This document shows, piece by piece, positions 1,496 through 42,610 of a DNA stretch of 64,000 nucleotides. How positions within the stretch are numbered: position 1 is the stretch's first letter; every line of letters begins with the position of its first letter. The position numbers were made by a program, and so were the translations under genes. Origin of the DNA: Patescibacteria group bacterium (GTDB lineage: Bacteria > Patescibacteriota > Doudnabacteria > UBA920). The DNA lies in assembly GCA_013387205.1 (NCBI GenBank), contig WARV01000005.1, forward strand, positions 27,924-91,923, given 5' to 3'. The notes below the pieces were generated by a model. It saw nothing but the letters and a program-made list of their open reading frames with translations, was not told the DNA's origin and ran no database searches.

Positions 1496-1657
1496 GAAGT
1501 AGTCTCAAAATCTCATTTTGGCTGCAATTTCAGAATTTCGACATCTTGCCGCAAAAAATTTATTCCGCTTAGCTTTAGCTAAACATCAAAATTTATTTGC
1601 GTCAATCTGCCCGAAATTCTGAAATTTCGCCTGAAAAGCAGCTTTTGAGACTACTTC
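1496..1657. repeat. MITE-like repeat, short subfamily (copy A)
   Basis: ~162 bp intergenic element bounded by terminal inverted repeats gaagtagtctcaaaa...ttttgagactacttc. The same element recurs at 13826-13988, and an extended form at 7245-7450 and 26635-26839. Confidence 0.7.
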
Positions 1658-2353: not shown

Positions 2354-4084
2354 ATGGTTTCCAAACATCCGCAAAAAAACATATTCAGGTCCAGGCTGGC
2401 CGTTTTGACGGCTTTTTTATTGCTGGTTTTTCTTACCGTAATCTTCAGGCTGTTTAGCCTACAGGTAATCCGCGGCAGGCAAAACAGGCTCATGGCCGAA
2501 CAGCAGCACAGCATCTATAAAAAATTGCTGCCCAGCAGGGGAGAGATAAAAATTATTGACCAGTCCACTTTAGAAGCCAGCCCGCTTGCCACCAACATCA
2601 AAAAATACCTGGTTTACGCCGTGCCGGATGAAATAACCGACCCGGCGGTTGCGGCCAAAAGCTTGTCTGAAGCAATACAGCTTCCGGAAAAAGATTTGGA
2701 AGAAAAAATTTCCAACAAGGAAAAGAAATACGTTCCTTTAAAAAAACAGCTCACGGATGGCGAGCAGCAGAAAATTAAGGACTTAAACTTGTCCGGGATT
2801 TATTTTGATTCCGAAGAAACCAGGTTTTATCCGGAGAAAAATTTGCTCAGCCATGTGTTGGGATTTGTCGGTTACAAGAGCGATAAGAAAGTCGGACTTT
2901 ACGGTTTGGAAAGGTATTTTGAAAAAGATTTGGCTGGCAAAGGCGGCAGCTTGAAAGAAGAGAAAGATACGGCCGGAGCCTGGATTTTCGGCTCTAAAAG
3001 GGAAATTAGCCCGGCAGAAGACGGCATCAACTTAGTTTTGACAATAGACAAGACCATCCAGTTTAAAGTGGAAAGCGTGCTTAAAAACGCGGTTACCAAA
3101 AACGGGGCGGATTCAGGATCGGTGGTAGTTGCAGACCCCAAAACCGGAGCTATTTTAGCAATGGCCAACTATCCGGATTTTAATCCTAACGAATACAATA
3201 AAGTTGAGAATATCGGGATTTTTTCCAACGAAGCGGTAATGGGCAATTACGAACCGGGATCCGTGTTTAAGCCTATAACCATGGCTGCTGTCATTGACCA
3301 GGGTGCGGTTACGCCCGACACCACTTATAACGATACGGGAGCCGTGGTTATTGACGGCTATACCATAAAGAATTCCGATAACAAAGGGCATGGCATCCAG
3401 ACTATGACCCAGGTTTTGGAAAAATCTTTGAACACTGGAGTGATTTTTGCCAAAGACCAAATCGGCAACGATGCATTTTTCAGTTACATCAAAAATTTCG
3501 GCTTTGGTAAGGAGACAGGGATTGAGCTTCCTGAGCAAAAGGGGAATTTGGATAACTTAAAAGCCAACATCAAAGTGAATTTTGACACGGCCAGTTTCGG
3601 GCAGGGGATTTCCGTTACGCCTATTCAATTAATTCAAGCTTTTACTGCCATTGCCAATGAAGGCAAAATGATGAAGCCGTTTATTGTCCGGGAAAAAATT
3701 AACGCGTATGGCGATGTGGCGGTTACGCAGCCCGAGGAGGTTAAGGACGTGGTTTCCGCCAAGACTGCCAACACCGTAGCAGCCATGATGGTTAACGTGG
3801 TGGAAAACGGGCATGGGAAAAAGGCGGGTGTGCCGGGATTTTATATTGCGGGAAAAACCGGAACCGCGCAGGTGCCGAAAAAGGATGGGCGCGGCTATGA
3901 AGAAAATAACAACATCGGTTCATTCATCGGGTTTGGCCCGGTAGATAACCCGAAATTTTTAATGCTGGTCAGGGTTGACCATCCTCGGGACGTGAATTTC
4001 GCGGAGAGTACCGCAGCCCCGGCTTTCGGCGAACTGGCACAATTTATCTTGAATTATTACCATATAGAACCGACTAGGAAATAA
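2354..4084 (+). CDS. ftsI: Class B penicillin-binding protein (peptidoglycan D,D-transpeptidase FtsI/PBP2)
   Basis: 576 aa with an N-terminal TM segment and transpeptidase motifs GSVFKP (SxxK), SDN and KTGTAQ. Lies downstream of the ftsL-like gene in the dcw cluster. Confidence 0.9.
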   Translation: MVSKHPQKNIFRSRLAVLTAFLLLVFLTVIFRLFSLQVIRGRQNRLMAEQQHSIYKKLLPSRGEIKIIDQSTLEASPLATNIKKYLVYAVPDEITDPAVAAKSLSEAIQLPEKDLEEKISNKEKKYVPLKKQLTDGEQQKIKDLNLSGIYFDSEETRFYPEKNLLSHVLGFVGYKSDKKVGLYGLERYFEKDLAGKGGSLKEEKDTAGAWIFGSKREISPAEDGINLVLTIDKTIQFKVESVLKNAVTKNGADSGSVVVADPKTGAILAMANYPDFNPNEYNKVENIGIFSNEAVMGNYEPGSVFKPITMAAVIDQGAVTPDTTYNDTGAVVIDGYTIKNSDNKGHGIQTMTQVLEKSLNTGVIFAKDQIGNDAFFSYIKNFGFGKETGIELPEQKGNLDNLKANIKVNFDTASFGQGISVTPIQLIQAFTAIANEGKMMKPFIVREKINAYGDVAVTQPEEVKDVVSAKTANTVAAMMVNVVENGHGKKAGVPGFYIAGKTGTAQVPKKDGRGYEENNNIGSFIGFGPVDNPKFLMLVRVDHPRDVNFAESTAAPAFGELAQFILNYYHIEPTRK

Positions 4085-4215
4085 CACATCTACTAAATAC
4101 TAATATATACTAAAGATACTAAAGCTATATACCAATAGTGATACCAATTAAGTATACTTGATGTGATTTAGTATATTTAGTACCTTTTAGTATTTAGTAG
4201 AGAAATTAGTAGAGA
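4085..4215. repeat. Word-palindrome array built from inverted tactaaa/tttagta 7-mers
   Basis: The left half carries four tactaaa words and the right half four tttagta words. The right arm (4160-4215) is the exact reverse complement of 52268-52305. Confidence 0.5.
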
Positions 4216-5367: not shown

Positions 5368-5670
5368 CTATTCACACTCCGGCAATCCTAACAAATAATC
5401 CGTCTCTTGCCCGTTTACCAAAATACGCGCGTACTTTCTCCCTTCGGGATTCTTGCCCACGCTAACTTCCAATCTTTTAACTTGTGTCGGGTCTCTCGGG
5501 TCAATAATAAAAGCCGCGCCCTTGTTTTGGATAAAGTCGCACAACTCTACCTGGGTGTAGAACCCCTCAAAAACCGTACCGTCTTCTACCCAGTGGAAAT
5601 GCTCAATATCCCAAACATTAGGGCTTTCCAGTTGCCCCTCAACGCATTTTTTAGTAAGGATAATATGCAT
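5368..5670 (-). CDS. Hypothetical protein
   Basis: 100-aa ORF with coding-like composition and no recognisable motif. Confidence 0.4.
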   Translation of the reverse strand: MHIILTKKCVEGQLESPNVWDIEHFHWVEDGTVFEGFYTQVELCDFIQNKGAAFIIDPRDPTQVKRLEVSVGKNPEGRKYARILVNGQETDYLLGLPECE

Positions 5671-5754: not shown

Positions 5755-6423
5755 CTAAATCTCCAGTAATAGGCGATGGTGGCTGAGCCACTGCTTTGCT
5801 GTTTTGAAATTCGGATAATATTTTTTCACCTCGTACCAGAATTTTTTTGAATGGTTGTGGTGCAAGATGTGTGCCAGCTCATGGACCGCCACGTAATCTA
5901 TTATTTCGAGCGGCGCCATTATTAGCCTGAAAGAAAAATTCAATGTTTGCTGGCTGGAACACGATCCCCAGCGGGTTTTGGCAGAAGTAATGGAAAGGCT
6001 TTTATAGCTTATTCCCATTTTTTCCGCGTAGTAATCTACGCGCTGTTTTATTATTTTTTGCGCCTGGGCTTTATACCACTTCCTAAATAATTGCTTGGCT
6101 TGGCCTTGAAAATGGGAAGACAGGATGAATTTTTCCCCGTCAAAATTTAGCCGCCTAAAGTAACTATCCGAAATTATCAAACCATACTGCTGCCCTAAAA
6201 ATAAAAACTTATCATCCTGCGAAAAATTGATTACAGATGCCCTTGGAAGTTGCTTAAGTTTGGCAAGGTGCTTAAAAATCCAAGCCTGCTTGTCTTTAAC
6301 CATGCTATCAATCTGCTTCTCGCTCACAAATTTTGGAGCCCTGACGATTATTTGGCCGTCAGGCTTTATTGCCAAAGCAATAGTCCTTCTTTTTGACCTT
6401 AAAATTTTGTATGTAAAATCCAT
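5755..6423 (-). CDS. YgjP/DUF45-family metal-dependent hydrolase (WLM/M48-like)
   Basis: 222 aa. The C-terminal HELAHILHHNHSKKFW zinc-binding signature is typical of DUF45/YgjP. Confidence 0.75.
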   Translation of the reverse strand: MDFTYKILRSKRRTIALAIKPDGQIIVRAPKFVSEKQIDSMVKDKQAWIFKHLAKLKQLPRASVINFSQDDKFLFLGQQYGLIISDSYFRRLNFDGEKFILSSHFQGQAKQLFRKWYKAQAQKIIKQRVDYYAEKMGISYKSLSITSAKTRWGSCSSQQTLNFSFRLIMAPLEIIDYVAVHELAHILHHNHSKKFWYEVKKYYPNFKTAKQWLSHHRLLLEI

Positions 6424-7226: not shown

Positions 7227-7244
7227 AAGTCTAGTGGTTTAATT

Positions 7245-7450
7245 AGAGCTGGTTTCAAAGCCTGCTTTTCAGGCGAAATTTCAGAATTTCGGGCAGATTG
7301 ACGCAAATAAATTTTGATGTTTAGCTAAAGCTAAGCGGAATAAATTTTTTGCGGCAAGATGAGCTTTAATGGCAATCTGGCTCTGCCAGTTGCCAGCTTA
7401 ACCCCAAAATTCTGGAATTGCAGCCAAAATGAGGTTTTGAGACCAGCTCT
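7245..7450. repeat. MITE-like repeat, long subfamily (copy B, inverted relative to copy A)
   Basis: ~206 bp. Terminal inverted repeats are agagctggtttcaaag...ttttgagaccagctct. The interior aligns with copy A in reverse complement and carries an extra ~45 bp (atgagctttaatggcaatctggctctgccagttgccagctt). Confidence 0.7.
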
Positions 7451-7657
7451 TGCAATAAGCCAAAAAACCGTCAATTTTAAGCGATTTTATCCTTAGTGGT
7501 AAAAGTAACCGGGTAGCAAAAATCATTGAAATTTAGCCATATTTTGCGCTAACGCAAAATCGCTATATTTGTACATTTTAGCACATTTAAGATGACGAAT
7601 CCAAAACAGGGTTTAATAATGAAAAGGGCACCGCGGGGGCGCGGTGCCCTGTTGTCC

Positions 7658-8131
7658 TTAAGTCCTGCTTTTGCAATAACGGTGTGCAAGGACTGCAAAT
7701 GCCAAGTCCCCAAACTCATTACCGCATGCTACTGCAACTGCCTGATCGATAGACGCCAGATATGCGACAGCGGCAATCGAAATTTTTAAAGCCCCGGTCG
7801 CTGTTTCGATGAAGAAAAACCTCCAGAACAGGGCTTTTATTATGAACACAATAGCCAGTTGGTACATGCTTGCGCGGCGTTGCCTCATCACCATAAACCA
7901 GTAGTATATGGCGGAATCAATTAGCCACACAAGGAACCCTACAACTAACACATTGTTGATGGACAGGTGGTGGAAAAACTTTGCGGCTGCTAAGGATAAA
8001 ATCCATGATCCAAAGTAGGCCGCAATGCTCCAAAGCATAAAATCCTCCCTTAACTCATCTCTCTTTCCTTTCTTTCCCAGTGTTACAACTATTGTGGATT
8101 TTAGCACAAAAAATAAAAAAACGAAATCCAC
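7658..8131 (-). CDS. Hypothetical membrane protein
   Basis: Multiple hydrophobic segments (e.g. LWSIAAYFGSWILSLAAAKFF and VVGFLVWLIDSAIYYWF). The true start is uncertain. Confidence 0.35.
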   Translation of the reverse strand: MDFVFLFFVLKSTIVVTLGKKGKRDELREDFMLWSIAAYFGSWILSLAAAKFFHHLSINNVLVVGFLVWLIDSAIYYWFMVMRQRRASMYQLAIVFIIKALFWRFFFIETATGALKISIAAVAYLASIDQAVAVACGNEFGDLAFAVLAHRYCKSRT

Positions 8132-8220
8132 AATTTGGTAGGGTTAAAAACCCCTGGTTTTCCTGGACAATAAGCTAATTTTATGGTAAATTAGGATACA
8201 AATTCCAAGGAGGCGGATTC

Positions 8221-9627
8221 ATGAAATATAATACTTTTCCGCCTTCCGGCGGATTGAAAATGGTGGTAGTCCCAAGCCTGTTCTCACTAAGTGAGGGCCT
8301 GCTCGCTCATTCCGATATCTTGTGGGTAACTTATAAGCAGGCAATGTATTTTTCCTGTCCGGATGATATCCCAAAAAACGTCCGGCACGTTGTCATAGAT
8401 AACGCTATCTTGTCGGAATTTTATCTGAACAAGATTGTGACCTTGGCGTTTCAATGCGGGGTTGATGAAGTTTACGCAGTCAACGAGTTTAAGCGTATAA
8501 AGAAATGGGCCGAGGCTTTGCTTGCTTCAAGCAAGCCAGGACGCAGCCTGGAATTGGGCGCGAGACCAAAAAAATATGACGGAGAAAACCAGATGGAAAG
8601 CAGGTTAGATGTTAAGCTGGAAGAAGGAAAGAAGCTGCTGGTGTTGGATGAGGATATAAACACCATCCATTGCGGCGGCCGTGACATGAAAGCAAAGGTG
8701 GAGTTTTGGGGAATCTCGGAAATTAAGAAAGCCCTGGCTGCCCCTTTGCAAGCCGATTTGGCGAACATCCAGTCAGTGGCTATTGTCGCAAGCCTGCCTG
8801 ATAGGTACAAGACTGAAATGCGCAGGCTTTTAATTAATAGGAGAATCAGCGACATCCACGATGTTTCCAATAGAGGGGTTGTAACGCAATACATCAACAG
8901 CTTGGCTTTGTTAAGCCAGGTGCGCGTTGTTGAATCGCCAACATTTGCCAGTAGTTTGGCCGATGTGGTTGTAATGCCGCCAAAACCTCAGGACGAAACT
9001 CCCGATCCTGCCGTCGGCGGCAGCAAGAACCAAGAAAAAGATGTTTTGCAACGCGACGGCGCGGTCCATATTTCGGCTGGGACAGCAACGGGGAAGAAGG
9101 ATTCGCTGACCGAGTTTGTTCGTAAAGAGGCCAACTTTTTTCCCAAATTTCCGAGAGAAGAAATACAGAGACTGGTCGATTTGGCGCTGAGTAGGGATTA
9201 TGATACGGATTTCAAGAGGATGCAGTCATTGTATTACCAGGTTAGAGCCAAACACAATGGTCGTGGTAATAGTAATGGTGATTGCAAAAGTCCAATCCCT
9301 TTTCCGGCATCTGACCCGCAGTGTGCTCCGCAGGTGCAGGCAAACCAGCCTCCAAAACTCAAAGCCGAAGTCTTGATAAGCGGCAATAACGGAGCCGGCG
9401 GGGAATCCTTGGCTAAGTCATTAGACGACGCCATCCGCATGATTTGCGACGGACAGGCGCTCATTAGCAAAGGAATCAAGGCATTGGCAATTTTGATGCC
9501 TGAAGTCGCGGAAGTGGAGAAGCAGGCAGCGGGCACCAAGGAGATAAGCAAAGCGATAGCTGCTTTGACTGAAATCCAGCGGGTCGCGTCTGCAGTGATC
9601 CCGTCAACCCAAGGAGTAAAGAATTAA
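8221..9627 (+). CDS. Hypothetical protein, GC-rich orphan
   Basis: 468 aa. Preceded by a strong SD (aaggaggcggattcATG) and followed by a strong terminator. No recognisable domain. GC content is clearly above the local background. Confidence 0.55.
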   Translation: MKYNTFPPSGGLKMVVVPSLFSLSEGLLAHSDILWVTYKQAMYFSCPDDIPKNVRHVVIDNAILSEFYLNKIVTLAFQCGVDEVYAVNEFKRIKKWAEALLASSKPGRSLELGARPKKYDGENQMESRLDVKLEEGKKLLVLDEDINTIHCGGRDMKAKVEFWGISEIKKALAAPLQADLANIQSVAIVASLPDRYKTEMRRLLINRRISDIHDVSNRGVVTQYINSLALLSQVRVVESPTFASSLADVVVMPPKPQDETPDPAVGGSKNQEKDVLQRDGAVHISAGTATGKKDSLTEFVRKEANFFPKFPREEIQRLVDLALSRDYDTDFKRMQSLYYQVRAKHNGRGNSNGDCKSPIPFPASDPQCAPQVQANQPPKLKAEVLISGNNGAGGESLAKSLDDAIRMICDGQALISKGIKALAILMPEVAEVEKQAAGTKEISKAIAALTEIQRVASAVIPSTQGVKN

Positions 9628-9649
9628 TTTCATGAGCAGTACATCATAA

Positions 9650-9691
9650 ATCCGCGCTTTTCGAATGTCGAAAAGCGCGGATAGTTTTTTT
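9650..9691 (+). terminator. Rho-independent terminator
   Basis: tccgcgcttttcgaatgtcgaaaagcgcgga forms an 11-bp stem followed by tagttttttttacg. Confidence 0.75.
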
Positions 9692-9749
9692 TACGCTGCC
9701 ATCCCGGACCAGATATCTGGTACGGGGCAAGCTAGTGATAATGGTAAGT

Positions 9750-9912
9750 GATGTCATTGCGAGTGCATCCGACTTGTCCTCCGTAGCTTTAGCGAAGGGG
9801 GAAGCAGTCTTCCCCTGTTAGATTGCCACGCAATTTAAGCCAATCCGCCAGCTGGCGAACCTTAAATCGCTCGCAATGACATCGTTTACTGTCATTGCGG
9901 GTGCATTCGATA
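9750..9912. repeat. GTCATTGCGAG-family palindromic unit cluster
   Basis: Contains atgtcattgcgagtgcatccgac and gattgccacgcaatttaagccaatccgccagctggcgaaccttaaatcgctcgcaatgac. The latter recurs almost identically at 57865-57935. Confidence 0.55.
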
Positions 9913-12249: not shown

Positions 12250-12795
12250 TCAGGTTTTTAGCAGTGAGATGAATTGTTTTTTCAGCTTTTCCAATTTCGG
12301 ATCAATGACTAACTGGCAGTATGGCAAGTTTTTATGGTTTTCGTAATATTTTTGATGGTAATCTTCGGCAATAAAAAAATTTTTCAAAGGCCTAACTTCT
12401 GTCACAATAGGTTTTCCAAAAAGATTTTGCTCCTCCAAATCTTTCACATATCTTAAAGCCTGCTGTTTTTGTTCTTCGTCCGCATAAAAAATTACGGACT
12501 GATATTGCGGGCCAATGTCCGCGCCCTGCCGGTTTTTTGTTGTCGGGTCGTGCGTGGCAAAAAATACGGCTAAAAGGTCTTTGTATGTAATTTGCGATTC
12601 GTCGAATTCGAATTTTATAACTTCAATATGTCCGGTATAGCCCTTAGTGACCTGTTCGTAGCCCGGGTTTTTTAAATCGCCGCCGCTGTATCCCGGCACA
12701 ACCGAAACCACGCCTTTAAGCTCGTTGAAAACCGCCTCAGTACACCAAAAGCAGCCTCCGCCGAATACTGCTGTCTTAATTTGTCCGTTTGCCAT
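12250..12795 (-). CDS. msrA: Peptide methionine sulfoxide reductase MsrA
   Basis: 181 aa. GGGCFWC active-site motif at the N-terminus and overall MsrA layout. Confidence 0.9.
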   Translation of the reverse strand: MANGQIKTAVFGGGCFWCTEAVFNELKGVVSVVPGYSGGDLKNPGYEQVTKGYTGHIEVIKFEFDESQITYKDLLAVFFATHDPTTKNRQGADIGPQYQSVIFYADEEQKQQALRYVKDLEEQNLFGKPIVTEVRPLKNFFIAEDYHQKYYENHKNLPYCQLVIDPKLEKLKKQFISLLKT

Positions 12796-13812: not shown

Positions 13813-13825
13813 AAAGTTTGATATT

Positions 13826-13988
13826 GAAGTAGTCTTGAAAAGCTGCTTTTCAGGCGATGTTTCAGAATTTTGTGCAGATTGGCAGAAATAAATTTTAAGG
13901 TTTAGCTAAAGCTAAGCCGAGAAATTTTTTCTGGCAAGATGCCAAAATTCTGAAATTGCAGCCAAAATGAGGTTTTCAAGACTACTTC
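13826..13988. repeat. MITE-like repeat, short subfamily (copy C)
   Basis: Terminal inverted repeats gaagtagtcttgaaaag...ttttcaagactacttc. The interior is ~85% identical to copy A in reverse complement. Confidence 0.7.
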
Positions 13989-14093
13989 ATTAATTAAGAC
14001 CTGGTAAAAACAATATTCTTACCTTAATTATAGCAAATAAATACATAAGAGGCGCACAAGCTAAAGCAGATGCTGTGCGCCTCAAAGAGAATG

Positions 14094-17888: not shown

Positions 17889-18551
17889 TTAATATTTCGG
17901 AATATATTTATACACTTTAGAAAATAGGCAATCTTCCCTTTTAAAAGTCTTAATACCAGAAAGATCTTTGCTTATGGGAAATTCTATGAATATACCTTTT
18001 TTGTATTTGTATTCCGGTGACAAAACCAAAGTCGCCAGCTTTATTAAATCGTAAATACGAGATATGGCATTTGTATTGTTAGATTTTTTTGCCTCTATAA
18101 CAATATGATTTTTCTTTTTGCCTCTTTTATGAATAATAATGTCTGGATAAATTCTCTCTTTTAATACCTGATTATTTATTTTTATTAAAAACAAAAGCAC
18201 ATCCCGGTCTTCTAAGTATTCAAATTTTGGCTGGCACAATTGCTGTTTTAGGCTATTAATATCCTCAGGACTGACATTATTATGAAACATGTCACGTATT
18301 TTTGGCGCAAGCTCTCCCAGATGGTCTGCCATTTTGGAAAGAAGTAGTCTTGGCTCTATGGTGATTTCTTTTGGTCGTCTAAGATTTTTATTATATTCAC
18401 AGTCTACGTCCCAAGTACGAAATAATTTTTGATAATGCTCAGCTAGTTTATGGGTAATAGACCTTTCACTCAGGTTATTTTTTAGCAAATATCTATCGTC
18501 ATTCAGAAGAAAACTCAGACCGGTTTCAATTTTTAGGAAATCTGTTGACAT
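17889..18551 (-). CDS. Hypothetical protein with a PD-(D/E)xK-like nuclease motif
   Basis: 220 aa. YPDIIIHKRGKKKNHIVIEAKK gives PD ... (17 aa) ... E-A-K, the core restriction-endonuclease-fold signature. Part of the same AT-rich islet. Confidence 0.45.
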   Translation of the reverse strand: MSTDFLKIETGLSFLLNDDRYLLKNNLSERSITHKLAEHYQKLFRTWDVDCEYNKNLRRPKEITIEPRLLLSKMADHLGELAPKIRDMFHNNVSPEDINSLKQQLCQPKFEYLEDRDVLLFLIKINNQVLKERIYPDIIIHKRGKKKNHIVIEAKKSNNTNAISRIYDLIKLATLVLSPEYKYKKGIFIEFPISKDLSGIKTFKREDCLFSKVYKYIPKY

Positions 18552-26619: not shown

Positions 26620-26634
26620 AAAAACCCCCTTATA

Positions 26635-26839
26635 AGAGCTGGTTCCAGAACCTCATTTTGCCTGCAATTGCAAATTTTTGGGGTTAAGCTGGCAACTGGC
26701 AGAGCCAGATTGCCATTAAAGCTCATCTTGCCAGAAAAAAATTTTCGGCTTAGCCCTAGCTAAACCTCAAAATTTTTTTCTGCCAATCTGCCCAAAAATT
26801 TGCAATTTCGTCTTAAAAGCAGGTTTTGGAACCAGCTCT
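26635..26839. repeat. MITE-like repeat, long subfamily (copy D)
   Basis: Terminal inverted repeats agagctggttccagaacc...ggttttggaaccagctct. It shares with copy B the ~45-bp internal segment missing from copies A and C. Confidence 0.7.
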
Positions 26840-26950
26840 ATAAAACAATTTTCATCGTAATATTTGACGGATGTTACTTAAGCCTTAAAACTACCCTGCT
26901 TAATTTTGGGAAAATTAATTGTATAAAAAAGAGGTTTGTTTATGCGGAAA

Positions 26951-26980
26951 CGAATGGCTCAACCCACGGTTGAGCCATTC
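26951..26980. repeat. Conserved 30-bp hairpin (cgaatggctcaaccNacggttgagccattc), copy 1
   Basis: A 12-bp perfect stem. An almost identical copy lies at 56401-56430, differing at one loop base. Confidence 0.5.
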
Positions 26981-26990
26981 ATCAGGTACA

Positions 26991-32407: not shown

Positions 32408-34885
32408 TTATACAAAACTTTCTGCTTCAAATATTAATATATCGTTTTCGTTATTGGTTTTCATCGTATCGATAAGATTCTGGCGGTACTGGACTACGTC
32501 TTGCTCTAAGTCAAAGCTTAAAAATTCCTGGTATTTTTCATTCAGCAATTTTGCTAATTCCATTGAAAAACCATTTTTCAATAAACAGATAATGTGCGGA
32601 TTATTTGTTCCGTATTTAACGTGGTCGTAAAAATCCGAATCAACCAAATCGAGGTCTTTCAAAATTTCCAGATACTTGAGGATATAGAAATCTACAAATT
32701 CCTGCTCTTCTTTTATTTTGGCTACGGCTAGGTTTATCCTCTGTACCTCGTTTTTTTCGCTGATGTTCACATATAAGCTTTGGTGCCCGTCTCCGCCGGT
32801 GCGGTCGCCCCACTTGGCGCCAACGTACACTAGGACATCTCCTCCCGCCTCCCTCCTTTTCCAGTAAGCGAGAAAACGGCTAATCATGAGCGGATACGGA
32901 GCCCCTTGGGACCGCCATGCTATAAACATGGAGTAAAAATTTCTCGCGATTTCATTGCCCTTTATACGGGCAATATTATCACTGCCACTTTTTAAGGTTA
33001 TGCCTTCAAAGAAAATCTTAACGATGGCATTGATTAAAGTTTCTGCACTGTTCATTTTTGGATTGCCCACTTCATTATAGTAAGCAAGATTGGCATTCAG
33101 TATTTGCTCGCTTTCTAAGATATTAAAGTCGTGTATATTGTTAGCAAAACACAGCCTACCCAATTCAGTTGCCGGAGCCGGTATGTCCGTAAGGCCGGAA
33201 GATCCGGGTTCAACATTTTCCAAGTAGGAAAGGACCTGCTTTGTTTTTTCTGTGTTTTCAGACTTCTCTAATAAAGGATTTTCTACAGTGTCTTCATGCT
33301 TGACCCCGGAATTCACCTTTTTATGATAAAAGGAGAGGGGCGAAAAACCCTTCGGAGAATAGGCTCCCCTCATCAAATAAATTTCCGGCTCAAGCAGCTT
33401 AAGGCTGCCCGATTCCAAGTCAAAAACTTCCTTGAAGCGGCAGACCCGGCCTATAAGATTTTTAAACTGGGAAGCGCTGAGGTGGCTCCTGCCTTTTTTA
33501 GGATTTAGTATGAAAATTTTCTGCGCCGGAATATTAACCCCTTCCAATAAAGTCGAGGTTGTGATGATAAATTCAAATTCTGGATTTTTTGAGAATATTT
33601 CTTCGATGTATAATTTTATAACATCGGGAATTCCGCCATGGTGGTAGAGTATCCCGTGCTTTATGCACTCAATTAGATTATATTCGGGATGGATTAGTTC
33701 GCTGATGGATTCGATAACCTTGTTTATTACCGGTGTTAAGGCTATGGGATTTTTTTGCCGTGCAAAGCTTAACGAAAAATCTTCAACGGTAACAGGCCGG
33801 TTAAGATAAATGATATTTTTATTAGCTTTGTGAGCCATGATGAACGCCACATCCGTGCGGTAATGTTTATTTGGTATGGGAAACGCCTGATCTAAAAATT
33901 GGTCATAAAAGTGCATGTTTTGCGTTCTGGTATCGTAAGCGTAAAACCTTTCGACTTTCATATACTCCTCGATCTTTTGGCCCCTCACCGCAATCTGGTG
34001 GTTTTTGATGCTCAGACTGCCAGTGTCTATCAGAAAGGGCGTAAAAAAATTTACCAGAGCCCTCTCGTTGCGCTTCTTTAATATCAGCAATACCTGAGCC
34101 AGCAGATGCGCTCGCTCGGAATCTTCCAAAATATTATGGGCTTCGTCAACCAGAGCCAAGTCCAAAGACAGCTGCTGGTGCTTCTGCAGCAAAATTAAAA
34201 GCCGCTCCTGGGTTAATACTGCCAAAAACGACTGGTCGGTTTCCCTGAACATATCGGGGTGGGTAATAATCTTTTTGAAATTTTGCCTTATCATCCCGTC
34301 TTTCAATAAGTTATGTTTGGTCTGCGCCAACAAGGCTTTGCTGGGTACGACGATACATATTTTTTTGTTTGGATAATTCCGAACCTTTCGCACGATCATC
34401 TCTGACTTTCCATAAGAAGTCGGGGCGACCACGGCGATATTGTCCTCAGTCAGGGAAAATTTGTTTAAAGCCAACTGACCTAACGACCTGTATAGGTTGG
34501 CGCCGTCCCCCTCGATTTTAAAAGATTCCTGGTATGCAGAAATGTAGAGATTGGAAAACGAATCCCTGCTATTTTCTCCGTTGGCATACTTGTTCTCAAT
34601 AAATTTTACTATGGGAATGTAGTCCCTGCTCAGCGCGACGTCTCTAAGGGGTTCGTAATCGCTAAATTGGTTTGCATACTTAAGTATGATCCTATAACCA
34701 AGCCGCTCGATATCAGGATCATCAGAGTTAAGGAAATAAACCGCAACTTTTAAAATAAATATTTTATTTTCTTCGGAAATATTTGCGCCGCCCAAGACTA
34801 ATTTTTTATAGACATTTAGAAACAGTGAGCCGTCAAGGTTCTTTTTGTTCCGGATCTTTTTTAGCGTCAGTTCGTAAATGTCCAT
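32408..34885 (-). CDS. hamB: SF2 (Ski2/Hel308-like) helicase, Hachiman HamB-like
   Basis: 825 aa. Motif I VVAPTSYGKS, motif II LVDEAHN, motif V ITTSTLLEGVNIP, motif VI QFKNLIGRVCR. Start overlaps the stop of the upstream DUF1837-like gene (shared nt 34885). Confidence 0.6.
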   Translation of the reverse strand: MDIYELTLKKIRNKKNLDGSLFLNVYKKLVLGGANISEENKIFILKVAVYFLNSDDPDIERLGYRIILKYANQFSDYEPLRDVALSRDYIPIVKFIENKYANGENSRDSFSNLYISAYQESFKIEGDGANLYRSLGQLALNKFSLTEDNIAVVAPTSYGKSEMIVRKVRNYPNKKICIVVPSKALLAQTKHNLLKDGMIRQNFKKIITHPDMFRETDQSFLAVLTQERLLILLQKHQQLSLDLALVDEAHNILEDSERAHLLAQVLLILKKRNERALVNFFTPFLIDTGSLSIKNHQIAVRGQKIEEYMKVERFYAYDTRTQNMHFYDQFLDQAFPIPNKHYRTDVAFIMAHKANKNIIYLNRPVTVEDFSLSFARQKNPIALTPVINKVIESISELIHPEYNLIECIKHGILYHHGGIPDVIKLYIEEIFSKNPEFEFIITTSTLLEGVNIPAQKIFILNPKKGRSHLSASQFKNLIGRVCRFKEVFDLESGSLKLLEPEIYLMRGAYSPKGFSPLSFYHKKVNSGVKHEDTVENPLLEKSENTEKTKQVLSYLENVEPGSSGLTDIPAPATELGRLCFANNIHDFNILESEQILNANLAYYNEVGNPKMNSAETLINAIVKIFFEGITLKSGSDNIARIKGNEIARNFYSMFIAWRSQGAPYPLMISRFLAYWKRREAGGDVLVYVGAKWGDRTGGDGHQSLYVNISEKNEVQRINLAVAKIKEEQEFVDFYILKYLEILKDLDLVDSDFYDHVKYGTNNPHIICLLKNGFSMELAKLLNEKYQEFLSFDLEQDVVQYRQNLIDTMKTNNENDILIFEAESFV

Positions 34886-35700
34886 TATTGTGGTACAGGC
34901 TGTTGAATTGCCCGCAGCTCTTCATTTAAAAACTGTTCAATTTTGGAATAGGTCGACTTTTGAATGCAAAACAAAATAAGGCCTGCGAAAGCACCTTCTC
35001 CTTTTATAGCAGTCAAGCGGTCTCGGACCGCCTCGTGGGAAATTTTATTCGTGATGTCATGGAATAAAACAGAAACTAAGATCGCGTTTTTCTTGGTTCC
35101 TGGAGTTTGTTGGATTTCAGTAATGTCCCCATCCAACAATTCCTTTACCTTTTTCCTGTCGCCCTGGGCCAAGCTTAGGCTGACGTCCATAATAACGCTT
35201 TGCCACAAGTTCGGCCGTCTCCCTTGAAGAAATTCCTGCATCGCAGTTTTTGACTCGTCCAGCAACTTTTTGTTTTTTGCATCCGGCCCCTCGTCGTTGC
35301 CGGTCTCGCCTGATTTAACTTCGCCATACCAAATAGCGTTGCCACTGACCTCAACATATGTCAGGTCAAATCCCTTTCTTATGCTCTGTTCTTCCTTATT
35401 AAAAAAGATTGTAATTTTTTTCAGGTTCGGCAAAAATTTATCAATAACGAGGTGGGCAATGAATTCTCCCATCATGCCTTTTTTTGTCTGCGATGACTTG
35501 CTGGAGTATCGCTTGATAAATTCAGCCAAAGTGTTTTTATACGAATGGATTCCCAGCGTAAATTCTTTTACTTCATTTTTGCCATGACAAATAGCGCTTA
35601 ATTCGCTTCTGATTAAGCCTTTAATTTCCTCGCTCAATTCGTTTATGTGGCAAACTACAAACCCGTCTTCTTGCGTAACGTTTATGCCCTTCATACGCAT
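34885..35700 (-). CDS. hamA: HamA-like (DUF1837-type) predicted PD-(D/E)xK nuclease
   Basis: 271 aa, the typical HamA size. Candidate catalytic core GFDLTYVEV ... YGEVKSG (D ... E-V-K). Directly coupled to the helicase gene. Confidence 0.55.
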   Translation of the reverse strand: MRMKGINVTQEDGFVVCHINELSEEIKGLIRSELSAICHGKNEVKEFTLGIHSYKNTLAEFIKRYSSKSSQTKKGMMGEFIAHLVIDKFLPNLKKITIFFNKEEQSIRKGFDLTYVEVSGNAIWYGEVKSGETGNDEGPDAKNKKLLDESKTAMQEFLQGRRPNLWQSVIMDVSLSLAQGDRKKVKELLDGDITEIQQTPGTKKNAILVSVLFHDITNKISHEAVRDRLTAIKGEGAFAGLILFCIQKSTYSKIEQFLNEELRAIQQPVPQ

Positions 35701-36258: not shown

Positions 36259-37416
36259 TTATTGATTGTTCTTTAACGCCGCATAAGTTGCCAGCACATT
36301 CTGCATAGCCGTCTTTTCTGCCGCTGTGATGTCGCGGTCTTTGTAGTACTTATCACCCTCGTAGCGCATCTTGGTTTTCGTTCCGGCAAGGACAGCGTTG
36401 ATAATTTTCATTTCGTCATCACCAACCAGGGTGACCGAAGTTTCCCAGACCGTGCTGTTATTATCCCGGCTGACTGAGAGCGGAATGTAGTTATAGTTTA
36501 CTCCGTCTATGTTGAAGATATATTTGTTAACGAACAGCCAGTCGTCGCCGTGGTAAGTCACTTTCATCCAGAGAGTCGGTTGTCCGTTATCCGGTTTGTC
36601 GATCAGCAGCATTACAACGCTCTGCCAATAGCTGGGAGGAAAGCCCTTGTCATAATAAGTCGTGGTCTTTTTAATATCATCATAATCAGAACCCATTTTA
36701 GACAGGACGGCTTTGGTCTTTGCGTCAGCTTCTGCTTTGGCCTTTGCCTGGGCTTCCTGGTCGACCTTGGCTTTAGCGGCAGCTTCAGCATCAGCCTGCG
36801 TCTTGGCTGTTTTTTCTTCCTCGGTGAAGATGCGTTTTACGCTTAAAGTATTAGTAGTCTTTTTGCCGCCATTAGTAGCAGTAATATTAATTTGGTTTCT
36901 GCCTTCGTTCGGGACAGGAGTCTGGTAATCAAAGCTGCCATCTTTTTGAACAGTAACTCGTTTATTGTTTATGAGCAGCATTGACCCTGCTGGATTGACC
37001 TTGCCTTTGACGCTGACTGTTTTGGCCTGGACGGTATAGCCACTCGCAGGTTCAGTAATAGTAAGGGAAGGCGCACGGCCTGCATAAGCAGTGGAGATTT
37101 TTAAAACCGCAAATACCAGGACGATAGCTACAGTGGCAATCGTGTTGGTCTTTGCGGTAAACTTGGTTTTTTTCCAGAGGAACCAGATTCCGGCACCTGG
37201 GATAGTCAGGTACCACAGGAACGGAGTTAGGATAACTAATAGCACTATAGCGGAAATCTTTAAGATCTTTTTGATTCCCGCTGACTGGCTTGGCATGTGC
37301 GGCAGGGCTGCCGCAACTGCTGGTTGTGCAGAGGCCGGGACAAGGCTCTTTTTGCAGTGCCTGCAAACGGTAGCCTGATCCTGGATGTCCTCGGCGCAAT
37401 AGGGACATTTTTTCAT
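36259..37416 (-). CDS. Zinc-ribbon membrane protein with extracytoplasmic Ig-like and A/K-rich segments (paralog 2)
   Basis: Start set at MKKCPYCAEDIQDQATVCRHC (13 codons inside the track ORF). Two TM helices, a beta-rich domain, then an AKAKAEADAKTKA-type low-complexity stretch. GC-rich. Confidence 0.55.
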   Translation of the reverse strand: MKKCPYCAEDIQDQATVCRHCKKSLVPASAQPAVAAALPHMPSQSAGIKKILKISAIVLLVILTPFLWYLTIPGAGIWFLWKKTKFTAKTNTIATVAIVLVFAVLKISTAYAGRAPSLTITEPASGYTVQAKTVSVKGKVNPAGSMLLINNKRVTVQKDGSFDYQTPVPNEGRNQINITATNGGKKTTNTLSVKRIFTEEEKTAKTQADAEAAAKAKVDQEAQAKAKAEADAKTKAVLSKMGSDYDDIKKTTTYYDKGFPPSYWQSVVMLLIDKPDNGQPTLWMKVTYHGDDWLFVNKYIFNIDGVNYNYIPLSVSRDNNSTVWETSVTLVGDDEMKIINAVLAGTKTKMRYEGDKYYKDRDITAAEKTAMQNVLATYAALKNNQ

Positions 37417-37440
37417 TGTAGTTTCCTTGATCGGTTTTTC

Positions 37441-37570
37441 CTGGCCGGATAACATAAAGGCCCCCGCCAGGAGCTCGACCCTTTCGGGCCGAACGCATGG
37501 GTTTCCCCATACGACCGATCAAGGAACCCTGACGAGGGGTTCTATATCTTGATCGGATTTTTTGACCATA
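37441..37570. other. GC-rich structured element (candidate ncRNA or structured 5' leader)
   Basis: An ~130-nt island of ~60% GC in AT-rich DNA. Long-range stem ccttgatcgg ... ccgatcaagg encloses ggcccccgccaggagctcgaccctttcgggcc. An extra hairpin gaaccctgacgaggggttc and a third cttgatcgg copy follow. The overlapping track ORF 37052-37522 is probably spurious. Confidence 0.3.
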
Positions 37571-37958
37571 TCCCTTAGAAGTATAAGGGGGTTAGGTCGT
37601 TGAGTTGTTAAGATAATTATACGACATTTAAGCCGATTAATCCAGTCCATTTTAACTTAGTATTGGAAGGTTGCGAAGTACTAGTTATCTACTGCTGTGG
37701 ATATCTTTATATTGACTCGATAGTGGGCAGTGCTATCATTTTATATAGAACAACTACATATAAAAACACGCTCGCCCGACTCTGATCCGGGGTCACAAAT
37801 TGCGGATCAAATTAATTATTAACGAATTACTTATTTAACTGAATTGGGGCTTGACACTTAGCTGTGTCAGGCTTACACCAATTCAGATTTTTTGTAAGCC
37901 GACCTAGCTTTGTGTCGGCTGTTTTGATGTGTGGCTAAAAATCATTAATTAGAACCAT

Positions 37959-39257
37959 ATGTCAACACAAAAAGGAACGAAAACAACTTGCTTGCAATGG
38001 CACAACGAAAAGCGCAGGGTCAAAGACCTGCTGCCGTGGGATAAAAATCCCAGAACTCTTTCCGAAGAGCAGGAAGAACACCTAAAGGAATCTATCTCCA
38101 AATTTAATTTGGCAGAGATTCCCGTAATCAACCTGGACAATAAAATTGCCGCGGGACATCAACGTTTGAAAATTCTGCATCTGCTCGGCAGGAGCAATGA
38201 GATAATCGATGTAAGGGTGCCAAACCGCAAACTGACCCAAAAAGAGTTTGAGGAGTATAACCTCAGGAGCAATGCAAACGTGGGCTCATGGAATTATGAA
38301 ATGCTTTTGGAGCACTTTGAGATCGACACTCTCTTGGAGATCGGGTTTGACGAGCAGGCTTTGGCAGACGTGTGGGATGGCATGCTCGAAACGGAGGACG
38401 ATAATTTGGACTTGGAAAAAGAAATCAAAAAAGCCCAGAGCACCAAAATTAAGCCTGGGGATATGTTTTCCTTAGGCAGGCACACTTTACTCTGCGCCGA
38501 TAGCCTTGAACTTAAAAACATTAAGCGCCTGGTCTGCAACCAAAAAATGGACGTGTTGTATGTAGATTTACCCTATAATACAAAACTCTCGTACTCTGAA
38601 GGCGTTGGCAAGAAGCGCAACTATGGCGGCCATACCAATGACAACAAAACCGATGCCGAATATGAGCAGTTTGTTACGACTATGGTTAGCAATGGATTGG
38701 CAGTTTCCAAACCCGATGTCCATAGTTTCTTCTGGTGTGATGAAAGGTATATTGGGTTATTTCAGAAAGTCTTTGCCAACTGCGGCATTAATTCGCTCCG
38801 CGTATGTTACTGGCTCAAGAACGGCTTTAACGTGACACCGCATGTGGCCTTTAATAAAGTTTTGGAAGCTTGCGTCTACGGTACGGTTGGCAAGCCCTAC
38901 TTAAATCCAAACGCTACAAATTTGCATGAGTTGCTTAACAAAGAACTCGGCACTGGTAACCAGTTGGCTGATGACATTTTGGATCAGTTTAACATTTGGC
39001 TGGCCAAGCGTGATGCCGGGCAAGATTACGAGCACCCGACCCAGAAGCCAATTACATTAGCCGAGCGCCCATTAAGGCGTTGCAGCAAACCAGGCGACAA
39101 TGTGCTGGACTTAACGGCTGGTAGCGGCTCGACAATATTGTCGTGCGAGCAACTTAAACGCCGCTGCTTTGCCTGCGAGATCGAACCAGTGTTTTGCCAG
39201 GTAATCATTAACAGATTTGAAACTTATGCCAAACAAAAAGTTAAAAAACTCAACTAA
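37959..39257 (+). CDS. ParB-like nuclease domain fused to N6-adenine/N4-cytosine DNA methyltransferase
   Basis: 432 aa. N-terminal ParB/Srx-like region (WDKNPRTLSEEQEEHLKESISKFNLAEIPVI). C-terminal MTase motifs: DLPYN (motif IV variant), HPTQKP, DLTAGSGST (motif I). Confidence 0.75.
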   Translation: MSTQKGTKTTCLQWHNEKRRVKDLLPWDKNPRTLSEEQEEHLKESISKFNLAEIPVINLDNKIAAGHQRLKILHLLGRSNEIIDVRVPNRKLTQKEFEEYNLRSNANVGSWNYEMLLEHFEIDTLLEIGFDEQALADVWDGMLETEDDNLDLEKEIKKAQSTKIKPGDMFSLGRHTLLCADSLELKNIKRLVCNQKMDVLYVDLPYNTKLSYSEGVGKKRNYGGHTNDNKTDAEYEQFVTTMVSNGLAVSKPDVHSFFWCDERYIGLFQKVFANCGINSLRVCYWLKNGFNVTPHVAFNKVLEACVYGTVGKPYLNPNATNLHELLNKELGTGNQLADDILDQFNIWLAKRDAGQDYEHPTQKPITLAERPLRRCSKPGDNVLDLTAGSGSTILSCEQLKRRCFACEIEPVFCQVIINRFETYAKQKVKKLN

Positions 39258-40008
39258 AGAAATTGAAATCAAATACGGTGACCAGTTTGCACTTGGCGAG
39301 CATAAGTTACTGTGTGCGGATGCCGCTGACACCAAAACCATTTCCGCTTTCATCGGCAACGCTAAAATCAGCCAGATAAACTGTGATGTTCCATACGGAA
39401 TTGAGTATGCCCAATCGAAGGCTGGCTTTGGCAAAATTAAGGTGGACAAGGAAATTTTAAACGACGATTTTGTCTCAGACAGCCAGTATGCAGCCTTTAC
39501 CAAATCCTGGCTGGATGCCGTGGTACCACACCTGGCCAAAAAGAATTCCGTGTATATCTTTAACTGCGATAAAATGTTGTTTGCCCTTCGTGACGGTATG
39601 CAGCAAGCTGGAGTGAAATTTTCCCAGCTTCTCATCTGGATCAAGAGCCAGGCAGTCATTGGACGCAAAGATTATCTGCCAGCCCACGAACTTATTGCTT
39701 ATGGCTGGGCCGGAACTCACGAGTTCCACCGTTCCAAAGACAAAAGCGTACTGTATTATCCTAAGCCTTCCAAAAGTCCACTTCACCCGACTCAAAAACC
39801 AGTTGGCCTTATTCGTAAGTTAATTCTGAATAACACGAAAATTGGGGATACGGTTTACGACTGCTTTAGTGGTAGCGGAACTTGTTTAATTGCTTGCGAG
39901 CAAACCAGGCGTAAATGCTTGGCGGTTGAACTTGACCCACAGTATTGCCAGACTATTATTACCCGCTACGAAAAATTAACAGGTATTAAGGCTAAAAAGT
40001 TAACTTAA
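39217..40008 (+). CDS. DNA methyltransferase (N6-A/N4-C, beta-class), paralog of the preceding MTase domain
   Basis: 263 aa. DVPYG (DPPY variant), HPTQKP and DCFSGSGT motifs. Overlaps the previous gene by 41 nt. Confidence 0.75.
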   Translation: MKLMPNKKLKNSTKEIEIKYGDQFALGEHKLLCADAADTKTISAFIGNAKISQINCDVPYGIEYAQSKAGFGKIKVDKEILNDDFVSDSQYAAFTKSWLDAVVPHLAKKNSVYIFNCDKMLFALRDGMQQAGVKFSQLLIWIKSQAVIGRKDYLPAHELIAYGWAGTHEFHRSKDKSVLYYPKPSKSPLHPTQKPVGLIRKLILNNTKIGDTVYDCFSGSGTCLIACEQTRRKCLAVELDPQYCQTIITRYEKLTGIKAKKLT

Positions 40009-40012
40009 GTTT

Positions 40013-40447
40013 ATGATTACCGACAAACAAAAACAATTATTACTTGAGCAATTGAGAAAAACGCCGATCATCCAGTTGGCTACTGAAAAAACCGGCATCT
40101 CTCGCATGACTTACTATCGCTGGAGACGGGAAAGCCAAAAGTTTAAAAGGGCGGCTGACGAAGCCTTGGCCCAGGGAGAGCTCCTGATTAACGATTTATC
40201 TGAAGGGGTGCTCATATCTTTAATTAAGGAGAAAAATTTTCAGGCAGTTTCCCTGTGGCTAAAACAACACCATCCTAAGTATGCGGCAAGGTTAGAAATT
40301 TCCGGCCGCATCGAGCATGAAGACGGCAATCTTTCGGCTAAGCAAAAAGCCATTATTAAGCAGGCCCTGCGCCTGTCTATGATTAACAAACAAAACTACT
40401 ATGAACAAAGAAAAGGAGTTCCAAAAGATCCAGCACTGGATGCTTAG
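40013..40447 (+). CDS. Terminase small subunit-like HTH protein
   Basis: 144 aa. HTH (LATEKTGISRMTYYRWRRE) and an LWLKQHHPKYA-type segment typical of phage TerS. Immediately upstream of terL and overlapping it. Confidence 0.5.
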   Translation: MITDKQKQLLLEQLRKTPIIQLATEKTGISRMTYYRWRRESQKFKRAADEALAQGELLINDLSEGVLISLIKEKNFQAVSLWLKQHHPKYAARLEISGRIEHEDGNLSAKQKAIIKQALRLSMINKQNYYEQRKGVPKDPALDA

Positions 40448-41900: not shown

Positions 41901-41908
41901 AATGGCCG

Positions 41909-42604
41909 CTAACAAACGAATTTTTTCTGTTTTTTGCTGTATGAACACTTAACCGCATCAGTTTTGCCGTCTGATAAGCATTGCCTTACCAACTCGATCA
42001 GCTGGTCAGATATGACTTTGCCTTTTTGGTATGCATAATGGTAACCGAAGTTGCCTTTGCTCGGATGCGGTACGCCAATGATTTTGCGATTAGGATAAAC
42101 GTAAGCCAGTAACTCAAAAGCGTGATTGCCCACAGCAATCAGCGGCGTATTTTCCGGTATTAGAGAAATTTCTTTACTGAGGTAATTGCTGATGCTGTAG
42201 CGTATGGTGTTGAGAGATAAGGCTTTAACGTTTTTATTGCTTTGGCATTTAACTAATTCTGTCCAGAGGATTGGGCCGGTTAAACCAGTCTTGTCAGCCA
42301 AGTCCCGTAGCGGACCATAAAAATTTATATAGTCTTTGCGATTGAGTTCCCAGTAGCGCACAGCAGCTGGGTAATTTCGGTTTGCCTTGTCTGTAAAATA
42401 TATGGTTTCCTCCGGCCTTGCACGGCCAGGGTTCATGCCGACAATGATAGCACTTTTGCCCTTGCGGCCGTCTATTTCGTAGTAAAGGCATCGGGCGATG
42501 ATGCCTTGTTCGGGTTGGTAGTCGATATCAGAAAAGCTTTGCCAGGTTTTGTCATCCATCATGCGCTGGCCAATTACGGCGATTTGTTCGGAGATTGATT
42601 GCAT
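41909..42604 (-). CDS. Uracil-DNA glycosylase superfamily protein (MUG/SMUG-like motifs)
   Basis: 231 aa. Motif A IIVGMNPGRA and motif B GVPHPSKGNFGY are spaced ~130 aa apart, as in the UDG fold. Confidence 0.55.
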   Translation of the reverse strand: MQSISEQIAVIGQRMMDDKTWQSFSDIDYQPEQGIIARCLYYEIDGRKGKSAIIVGMNPGRARPEETIYFTDKANRNYPAAVRYWELNRKDYINFYGPLRDLADKTGLTGPILWTELVKCQSNKNVKALSLNTIRYSISNYLSKEISLIPENTPLIAVGNHAFELLAYVYPNRKIIGVPHPSKGNFGYHYAYQKGKVISDQLIELVRQCLSDGKTDAVKCSYSKKQKKFVC

Positions 42605-42610
42605 AGCTTT

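Follow-up and report, generated by a model that had tools for sequence, protein, structure and literature searches.

We found that the window, the whole stretch of 64,000 nucleotides of Patescibacteria DNA that was analysed, carries four full copies of a non-coding palindromic repeat, and that further copies lie in three or four other Patescibacteria genomes. These repeats probably constitute a new ERIC/Correia-like (MITE-like) family of the Patescibacteria whose members are moved by an enzyme acting in trans and are transcribed together with adjacent genes. Elements of this kind are well known, and what is new is the family itself, in Patescibacteria, whose genomes measure about 1 Mb, leave very little space between genes and have yielded few described mobile elements. 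In the literature searched we found no description of MITE-like repeats in Patescibacteria/CPR.

Repeat copies in the window and their size classes

A profile built from the four full copies was matched by all four of them in an nhmmer search of the window, with E values from 4.5e-54 to 1.4e-50, and no further match below E 0.1 was found. An unfiltered covariance-model scan of the window returned the same four at 167-187 bits; the next matches, unrelated, were generic terminator hairpins of 22 bits or less. These scores show that the family of four full copies proposed in an earlier, sequence-only reading of this DNA is real. Two copies belong to a short class. The first, c1, lies at 1495-1658 on the plus strand (164 nt; termini AGAAGTAGTC.../...GACTACTTCT; nhmmer span 1494-1658, E 1.3e-52; covariance model 187 bits), and the second, c2, at 13825-13989 on the minus strand (165 nt; GAAGTAGTC-type termini; nhmmer span 13826-13988, E 2e-51). 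In c2 the termini are longer by one base pair, both arms having gained a base (TCTTGAAAA / TTTTCAAGA). The long class consists of c3, at 7245-7450 on the minus strand (206 nt; termini AGAGCTGGTC.../...ACCAGCTCT; nhmmer span 7244-7451, E 4.5e-54), and c4, at 26635-26839 on the plus strand (205 nt; AGAGCTGG-type termini; nhmmer span 26634-26840, E 1.4e-50). A miniature copy, c5, occupies 51539-51574 on the plus strand, where 36 nt hold the left terminus AGAAGTAGTCTCAAAA and, beyond a loop of 5 nt, a right terminus that is degraded (TTTTGAGATAGCTGCT).

The full copies lie two per strand at unrelated loci of the window, as expected from the earlier claim that their orientation differs. The boundaries given then for c3 and c4 hold, but those for c1 and c2 (1496-1657 and 13826-13988) had to be moved, the palindrome running one base further out, to AGAR...YTCT. 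The element is 163-206 nt long with a G+C content of 36-42% (42% for the window), and the window has about one copy for every 13-16 kb. The element is non-coding, as none of the reading frames stays open throughout the copies; the ORFs that overlap c3 are at most 47 aa long, and the ORF context agrees with the previous statement that all copies are intergenic. An assembly artefact is unlikely to be the source of the repeats, since they are present in NCBI, ENA and Logan assemblies that were made independently. The family does break short-read assemblies: the Logan contig of the same genome ends inside c3.

The long class differs from the short class by a block of 42 nt at one internal position (gap columns 49-90 of the alignment A3 described below). 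The sequence-only reading had noticed this extra segment, at a length of ~45 bp. The block folds as a hairpin of its own (TGGCAACTGGC-AGA-GCCAGATTGCCA) and is identical in c3 (7362-7403, minus strand) and c4 (26682-26723, plus strand). We considered whether it might be a nested, independent mini-repeat and rejected this, since it was found nowhere else in the window and its 26-nt core matches c3 and c4 only.

At the other end of the size range, the stretch at 51541-51572 had been taken for a solo-end remnant. The stretch is present, but it keeps both ends, at 51539-51574, and c5 is better described as an internally deleted miniature. Its left terminus is an exact match (15/15 nt), and a local alignment of c5 with c1 scored 42, a value reached by 0 of 500 shuffles; taken alone, c5 is weak by the covariance model (10.9 bits, E = 2), and its DNA fold has a z of -2.8. 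Deleted copies of 36-79 nt that keep both ends occur in the window, in the genome AMAZON02 and in contig L146 (see below). The sizes thus form a series of 206, 163, about 77 and about 36 nt, with both ends kept throughout.

A whole-length hairpin with covarying arms

Every full copy is an imperfect palindrome from the first base to the last and forms a single hairpin of about 63-66 pairs, capped at the apex by TTAGC-NNNN-GCTAA. Terminal inverted repeats of ~15-20 bp had been reported earlier; inverted repeats are present, but they are not terminal only, the arms being complementary over their whole length (~65 pairs). Folded as RNA, the copies gave -61.8 kcal/mol (c1, z -10.7), -65.6 kcal/mol (c2, z -11.0), -76.7 kcal/mol (c3, z -6.8) and -95.3 kcal/mol (c4, z -10.4), and for each of them 0 of 200 shuffles were as stable. 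Asymmetric internal loops (CTCA opposite GCAG, a TG bulge and a TC/TC loop) are common to nearly all copies, and the element therefore has polarity. Of the two strands, the one named 'rev', which is the reverse complement of the sequence as aligned, gives the more stable RNA in every full copy, by 7-19 kcal/mol, in part because a conserved G·U at the apex is an A·C mismatch on the other strand.

The constant parts of the element are few: only the outermost AGAR...YTCT and an inner TCYCAAAA block are shared among the copies. The outer 5-9 nt are its most variable part, and the copies differ there by compensatory changes, positions 5-9 covarying between the two ends. For example, the termini of c1 and c3 are 75% identical and their interiors 98%; interior identity among the four window copies is 81-98%. 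Five terminus types were counted among nine or ten copies, and in each type the two ends are complementary to each other.

Covariation was measured in A3, an alignment of seven full copies from four genomes with 66 stem pairs. Standard pairs filled 93.4% of the pair cells, and 23 of the 66 pairs showed compensatory double changes with pairing kept. The expectation from shuffling was 9.1±2.0 double changes, 0 of 500 shuffles reached 23, and slid partners gave 2-5. Compensation is spread beyond the ends. Interior pairs change from CGC...GCG to CAG...CTG, the apex stem switches from TTAGC/GCTAA to TTAAC/GTTAA, the full copy of L146 (named GCA146) has CATAAC/GTTATG where other copies have CAAAAC/GTTTTG, and the 1-bp insertion of c2 is mirrored in both arms. 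Most switches are full Watson-Crick swaps, transversions included, and single-sided G·U is rare (6 cells). Unpaired columns are not better conserved than paired ones, 11/33 and 63/129 of them, respectively, being invariant. We also tried the strand bias of wobble cells as a test of RNA versus DNA pairing and discarded it; the counts, 6 G·U against about 12 A·C cells, do not differ significantly, and the cells are non-independent.

The strong covariation leaves room for a structural role, as RNA or as single-stranded DNA. It is conceivable, though unlikely, that the hairpin itself is the selected unit, either as a start-codon-proximal regulatory RNA/DNA module, exploited by the host at translation-initiation regions of reduced CPR genomes, or as a new class of folded-single-strand mobile element. 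A rival reading, which we think unlikely, is that of a selected RNA structure acting in cis, domesticated or never mobile, that controls mRNA processing, stability or translation from just 5' of the ribosome-binding region or from between cistrons. RNase III cleavage of the stem or protection of the 5' end by it would be examples. The covariation along the whole stem, beyond the ends, the conservation of the asymmetric loops and of one apex A·C/G·U position in all copies, and the better folding of the 'rev' strand in every full copy are consistent with such a structure. However, an RNA would not lead us to expect so few G·U cells among mostly full Watson-Crick swaps, nor unpaired columns that are no better conserved than the stem.

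Another rival, which we regard as quite doubtful, is an element of hairpin DNA whose folded single strand is recognised by a structure-specific recombinase, following the logic of REP/RAYT, IS200/IS605 or attC. DNA pairing predicts just the Watson-Crick double changes that predominate here, and structural recognition agrees with five terminus types that each have complementary ends, with the paired 1-bp insertion of c2, with constant blocks that are short and confined to terminal (AGAR/YTCT) and subterminal positions, and with the conservation of extrahelical or mismatched positions. But a hairpin of about 163 nt is far longer than the REP or IS200 end hairpins, and the GTAG tag of many REPs occurs in one terminus type only.

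The anatomy of the ends also bears on the MITE-like reading that we prefer, and it speaks against it, variable termini being the opposite of what a sequence-specific transposase predicts. Because only AGAR...YTCT and TCYCAAAA are constant and positions 5-9 covary, the folded hairpin, or a bipartite end, would likely be the recognised feature rather than a fixed terminal sequence.

Relatives, insertion sites and neighbouring genes

Among named sequences, those that best match the window's MraW belong to the Patescibacteria group and Candidatus Doudnabacteria. Non-self homologues reach only 68% identity, so the collections searched hold no close sequenced relative of this host, a CPR bacterium, and three of four window proteins looked up by exact sequence, with a view to lengthening the source contig, had no record there; MraW in the relatives that carry the element is 66-68% identical to that of the window. 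A search of GTDB genomes with the apex pattern gave one true match, in the Patescibacteria MAG AMAZON02 (L003), and a match in Acinetobacter that was dismissed as chance. AMAZON02 holds a full copy, AMZ_a, at 30-193 with a third terminus type (AGAGTTTATCC.../...GGGACCAACTCT) and an internally deleted copy of 75-77 nt at 3206-3283. The 5'-arm pattern picked out 81 stretches in metagenomes with one true member, a copy of a fourth terminus type at the end of a Hainich groundwater contig (L081); this pattern is too strict for a census of the family. Two more relatives were reached by way of MraW homologues: a diverged copy with a fifth terminus type (AGAACCTATTT/AAATAGGTTCT) at 12518-12680 of ENA contigs L142 and L144, which is also carried by ENA contig L155 from a sister strain of L142, and the full copy GCA146 at 681-843 of NCBI GCA_023484515.1 (L146). 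The covariance model located a 79-nt relative, a miniature, at 13807-13885 of L146.

No copies lay within 10 kb of mraW in three other lineages sampled. The phage, plasmid and E. coli collections gave no blastn match, the E. coli search covering 20,395 records from 5,426 genomes at word size 11 and E <= 0.01. Two pattern scans of IMG/VR viral contigs returned 54 and at least 120 matches, which were set aside as chance, none fitting the family profile. Copies from different genomes can be closer than copies within one: c3 and GCA146 are 90% identical and c4 and AMZ_a 87%, versus 77-84% among most window pairs. Between genomes, copies of the element are 78-90% identical, or 60-65% for one diverged copy, whereas the proteins of these genomes share only 58-70% identity and their housekeeping proteins about 66%, a degree of conservation that would suit a selected cis-acting RNA. 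The repeat could serve in strain typing and as a tracer of horizontal exchange between CPR lineages in groundwater.

We then compared occupied and empty sites. The mraW-ftsL spacer is free of the element in six related loci (L139, L142, L146, L148, L152 and L153; distant relatives, MraW 66% identity). In L139 this spacer is 33 nt long and aligns with the window spacer after the element is removed; judged by this alignment, c1 appears as an insertion into the mraW-ftsL spacer. Elsewhere, c4 precedes a 199-aa gene whose L146 orthologue has no copy, and the L146 miniature lies 12 nt upstream of a 101-aa gene whose window orthologue (5368-5670) has none. We looked for a relic upstream of the L146 orthologue of the c4-adjacent gene, and a 16-nt match (15/16) there was rejected as too weak, being reached by 4 of 500 shuffles. 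Among the loci compared, no two genomes shared a copy at an orthologous position, which counts against a selected cis-acting RNA. Close strains could be compared in one case, that of L142 and its sister L155; the two are 100% identical across the copy, and no presence/absence polymorphism was found with this one pair available. All four combinations of terminus type and interior type are present in the window, which points to exchange between copies.

The flanks were read for target-site duplications. Repeats are present at c4 (TATAA/TATAA), c2 (AAT/AAT) and AMZ_a and GCA146 (TA/TA), and there are none at c1, c3 or A2b. No consistent duplication emerged from these flanks, which are A+T-rich and in which the outer A...T pair of the element blurs the boundary, and no conserved target tetranucleotide was seen 5' of the insertions. 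The lack of an evident duplication is a feature of HUH enzymes and would thus fit the folded single-strand element considered above, but that element would also lead one to expect a target tetranucleotide, copies in arrays or cassettes, and a suitable enzyme, and we saw none of these: neither the window nor the fetched loci encode an HUH (Y1) transposase, a RAYT or an integrase of the integron type.

The earlier statement that no transposase is encoded in the window holds for DDE and HUH enzymes: Pfam scans of 68 ORFs found no such transposase and no Y1_Tnp domain. The window does encode a large serine recombinase (46391-47731), part of an unrelated restriction-modification/defence island beside a tRNA-Gln gene. 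A cognate transposase with ends matching the terminal inverted repeats had been proposed as something to look for; neither the window nor about 290 kb of fetched related loci held another occurrence of any terminus type, or a transposase or larger element bounded by one. The only IS seen, an IS1595-family element in L152, was rejected as the autonomous partner, its terminal repeats being unrelated. If the MITE-like reading is right, the element would have been moved, now or recently, by an enzyme supplied in trans and not encoded in the window.

We next examined the genes around the copies. Copy c1 lies inside the dcw operon, where the order is mraZ, mraW/rsmH (537-1490), c1, an ftsL-like gene (1678-2061) and a PBP gene; between the mraW stop at 1490 and the ftsL-like start at 1678 it takes up nearly the whole gap of 187 nt. 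A 72-aa ORF on the minus strand starts at 7226, 18 nt downstream of c3. Further upstream of c3 are a promoter-like site at 7503-7474 and the terminator of the upstream gene at 7650-7625, and because the promoter-like site is upstream of the element, c3 is expected to lie in a 5' UTR. Two other copies lie upstream of minus-strand start codons, at distances of 12 nt for c2 (start codon at 13812) and 15 nt for c4 (start codon at 26619, backed by an orthologue alignment from residue 1), and c5 lies 13 nt upstream of an ATG at 51588. With c1 (19 nt), the AMAZON02 miniature (11-12 nt), which like c1 occupies a gap between two cistrons, and the L146 miniature, 7 of 10 copies end 11-19 nt upstream of a start codon; orthologue alignment from residue 1 confirms 3 of these 7 start codons. 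The spacers at c2, c3 and c4 are 118-228 nt long, and uniform placement would give such proximity with a probability of about 0.001, a rough estimate of ours. The exceptions are the L142 copy, between a stop codon and a terminator (3' UTR), the full copy of L146, between a terminator and a TTGACA-17-TACAAT promoter, and the full copy of AMAZON02, 49 nt from a tRNA. Relative to the adjacent gene, the orientation is mixed (4 forward, 3 reverse).

These placements bear on whether the copies could be genes in themselves, the sequence-only reading having suggested a duplicated small RNA gene. Such a family, each copy being its own transcription unit for a hairpin sRNA, would agree with a structure that is stable and covarying and with conservation across genomes, and yet we consider it very improbable. 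No sigma-70 promoter, outward or internal, and no terminator is attributable to the element; none of the copies has a promoter-like site inside it or at its margins, neither strand is followed by a U-tract terminator, and the sole terminator-like match, inside c4, is the apex hairpin. The near-complete filling of the dcw gap by c1, the mixed orientation and the deleted versions, which in 36-79 nt keep only the ends, also argue against an independent gene. A known ncRNA family would have offered another explanation, but at the gathering score no Rfam family matches any copy anywhere in the window; in E-value mode, two copies gave only generic hairpins of the miRNA-precursor type, at 14-25 bits against thresholds of 56-140.

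The same placements are also an argument for a selected cis-acting RNA, whose position just upstream of start codons in 7 of 10 copies and, for c3, in a 5' UTR behind a promoter-like site would be in accord with control of the downstream message. On the other hand, the mixed orientation means that the mRNAs carry different strands, three copies (in L142, L146 and L003) are away from start codons, and Rfam offers no family. Against the MITE-like reading, the conserved asymmetric loops and the seven start-proximal copies both suggest a constraint beyond selfish spread.

In the MITE-like reading, most copies would probably be transcribed within neighbouring mRNAs and form the ~65 bp stem there, since most of them are preceded by a promoter or an upstream gene and followed by a start codon. 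As has been reported for ERIC and Correia, such a stem, once transcribed, could be cut by RNase III or stabilise the 5' end of the message. Natural long hairpins beside ribosome-binding sites make effects on RNase III cleavage and 5' stability testable in organisms that are not culturable alone.

Comparison with known repeat systems

Bacterial MITEs are known for terminal inverted repeats, long RNA stem-loops, co-transcription and effects on mRNA stability (reviewed in PMC3184786). Like them, the present element is small, below the limit of about 400-500 bp for MITEs, and non-coding, has terminal inverted repeats and exists in multiple dispersed copies in both orientations; a related autonomous IS or transposase with the same termini was not present in the window or the related loci. 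The MITE-like reading given earlier is partly supported. Dispersal, both orientations, lack of coding capacity, size variants, relatives in other genomes and the empty c1 site favour it, but a consistent duplication, an autonomous element and a fixed terminus are missing. With neither an established target-site duplication nor a cognate transposase, the element is best called MITE-like rather than a MITE in the strict sense.

The Correia elements of Neisseria (CREE/NEMIS) and RUP, Nezha and Chunjie resemble the present family in being non-coding repeats of 100-200 bp with inverted repeats and dispersed intergenic copies. Correia and other bacterial MITEs share with it size classes formed by internal deletion, long RNA hairpins, and frequent positions near gene starts with co-transcription (PMC3184786). 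However, the terminal repeats of Correia and most MITEs, ~26 bp long, are conserved in sequence, their TA duplication is clear and several have a related IS, whereas the element described here has variable termini and inconsistent duplication, and no related IS was found.

The REP/BIME elements of RAYT systems are palindromic and extragenic, like ours; they are recognised as hairpins and have no target-site duplication, and GTAG is present in one terminus type of our family (GAAGTAGTC). REPs are G+C-rich sequences of 20-40 nt, tagged with GTAG or CGTC, that occur in hundreds of copies, often as doublets beside a RAYT gene (Y1 HUH). Unlike REPs, the present element measures about 163 nt with 36-42% G+C, four of its five terminus types are without GTAG, and there is no Y1 transposase in the window. 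Integron attC sites are similar in being imperfect palindromes in which structure and a few extrahelical bases outweigh stem sequence, with short motifs at the extreme ends. But attC sites bound cassettes in arrays beside intI and their interior is not conserved, whereas in our element the interior is best conserved, the copies are solitary and no integron integrase is nearby.

The likeness to ERIC/IRU is in the architecture. Both ERIC and the present element are whole-length imperfect palindromes, strictly intergenic, often within transcription units, in either orientation, and conserved across species, and neither has a known cognate transposase. ERIC is transcribed along with its neighbours and has been reported to affect mRNA stability (PMC3184786). 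In sequence the two are not similar; the element described here is found in Patescibacteria, is 163 bp long versus about 127 bp, has ERIC-type TA flanks at only some ends, and has an outer stem that is variable and covarying. Membership in ERIC itself is excluded by the sequence, and the resemblance is architectural only. ERIC is reportedly shortened by internal deletion and lengthened by an insert at a fixed internal site, and this pattern is matched by our element, a whole-length palindrome whose size variants arise through internal insertion and deletion. The covariation of its termini bears on the still-unexplained spread of transposase-less palindromic repeats such as ERIC.

Observations at related loci and in an independent assembly

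In L142, the contig of a Patescibacteria relative reached through MraW homologues, the region of the mraW-ftsL spacer (5988-6088) contains a 60-nt composite hairpin (CACCCCAGTCAAAT...ATTTGACGGGGTA). This hairpin is distinct from the hairpin element and occupies the position held in the window by copy c1. Inserts that form hairpins seem to have landed in this spacer repeatedly.

In L146, a locus of GCA_023484515.1, the DNA downstream of the element copy (869-1110) bears a consensus promoter, TTGACA-17-TACAAT, followed by a leader with GGTGGTACCGCG and a terminator; this arrangement resembles a possible T-box leader. Elsewhere in the same locus (17905-17945, minus strand), a 16-nt stretch, CTTAAGAGCAGGTTTT, matches the 3' arm of the element at 15 of 16 positions, a score that was reached by 4 of 500 shuffles. 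The gene that follows this stretch directly is orthologous to the one adjacent to copy c4. The match could be what is left of an earlier insertion at that gene, or it could be due to chance.

An independent short-read assembly of the window's genome (Logan contig from SRR19769811) is identical to window 7414-9804, and its end (contig positions 1-38) falls inside element copy c3, showing that the repeat fragments assemblies.

Other hairpin families in the window

Long, very A+T-rich inverted repeats, built of TACTAAA-like or CTACCAATCTAC-like units, were found in intergenic DNA at 4089-4208, 52260-52378 and 54626-54734, the last ending 1 nt ahead of the PCMT start codon (ATG, 54736). With these repeats, the source genome carries several unrelated hairpin families beside gene ends. 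A second palindromic family (GATTGC-CACGCAATTTAAGCC...GGCG.ACCTTAAAT.GC-TCGCAATGACAT) has three copies, at 9821-9882, 57863-57924 and 50595-50642; two share 95% identity, and the third has no internal hairpin. A 96-aa GIY-YIG gene (57516-57806) is closely followed by the copy at 57863. A terminator-like hairpin (GAATGGCTCAACC...GGTTGAGCCATTC) is also repeated, at 26939-26982 and 56386-56429, with 91% identity between the copies. One of these shares its spacer with element copy c4.

A candidate island and a defence-like gene pair

The stretch 37959-48759, together with tRNA-Gln at 49137-49211, is probably an integrated island, and no copy of the hairpin element was found in it. It encodes three N6/N4 DNA methyltransferases, a BamHI-family endonuclease (45647-46291), a large serine recombinase (46391-47731), a SIR2_2 protein (47740-48759), a protein with a sub-threshold match to HTH_Tnp_1_2 and an ORF of 499 aa that matches no Pfam family. 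Of a 60-nt direct repeat (44629-44688 and 46339-46398), one copy is upstream of a methyltransferase gene and the other upstream of the recombinase gene.

On the minus strand, a LOOT RNA (Rfam RF03000; gathering score 46.4) was detected at 37476-37598, where the match scores 77.5 bits. The gene directly downstream of it (36259-37455) encodes 398 aa and has a Glucodextran_B domain. Also on the minus strand, a gene for a HamA-domain protein (34885-35700) adjoins that of a DEAD/ResIII helicase (32408-34885), and the two together resemble a Hachiman-type defence system.
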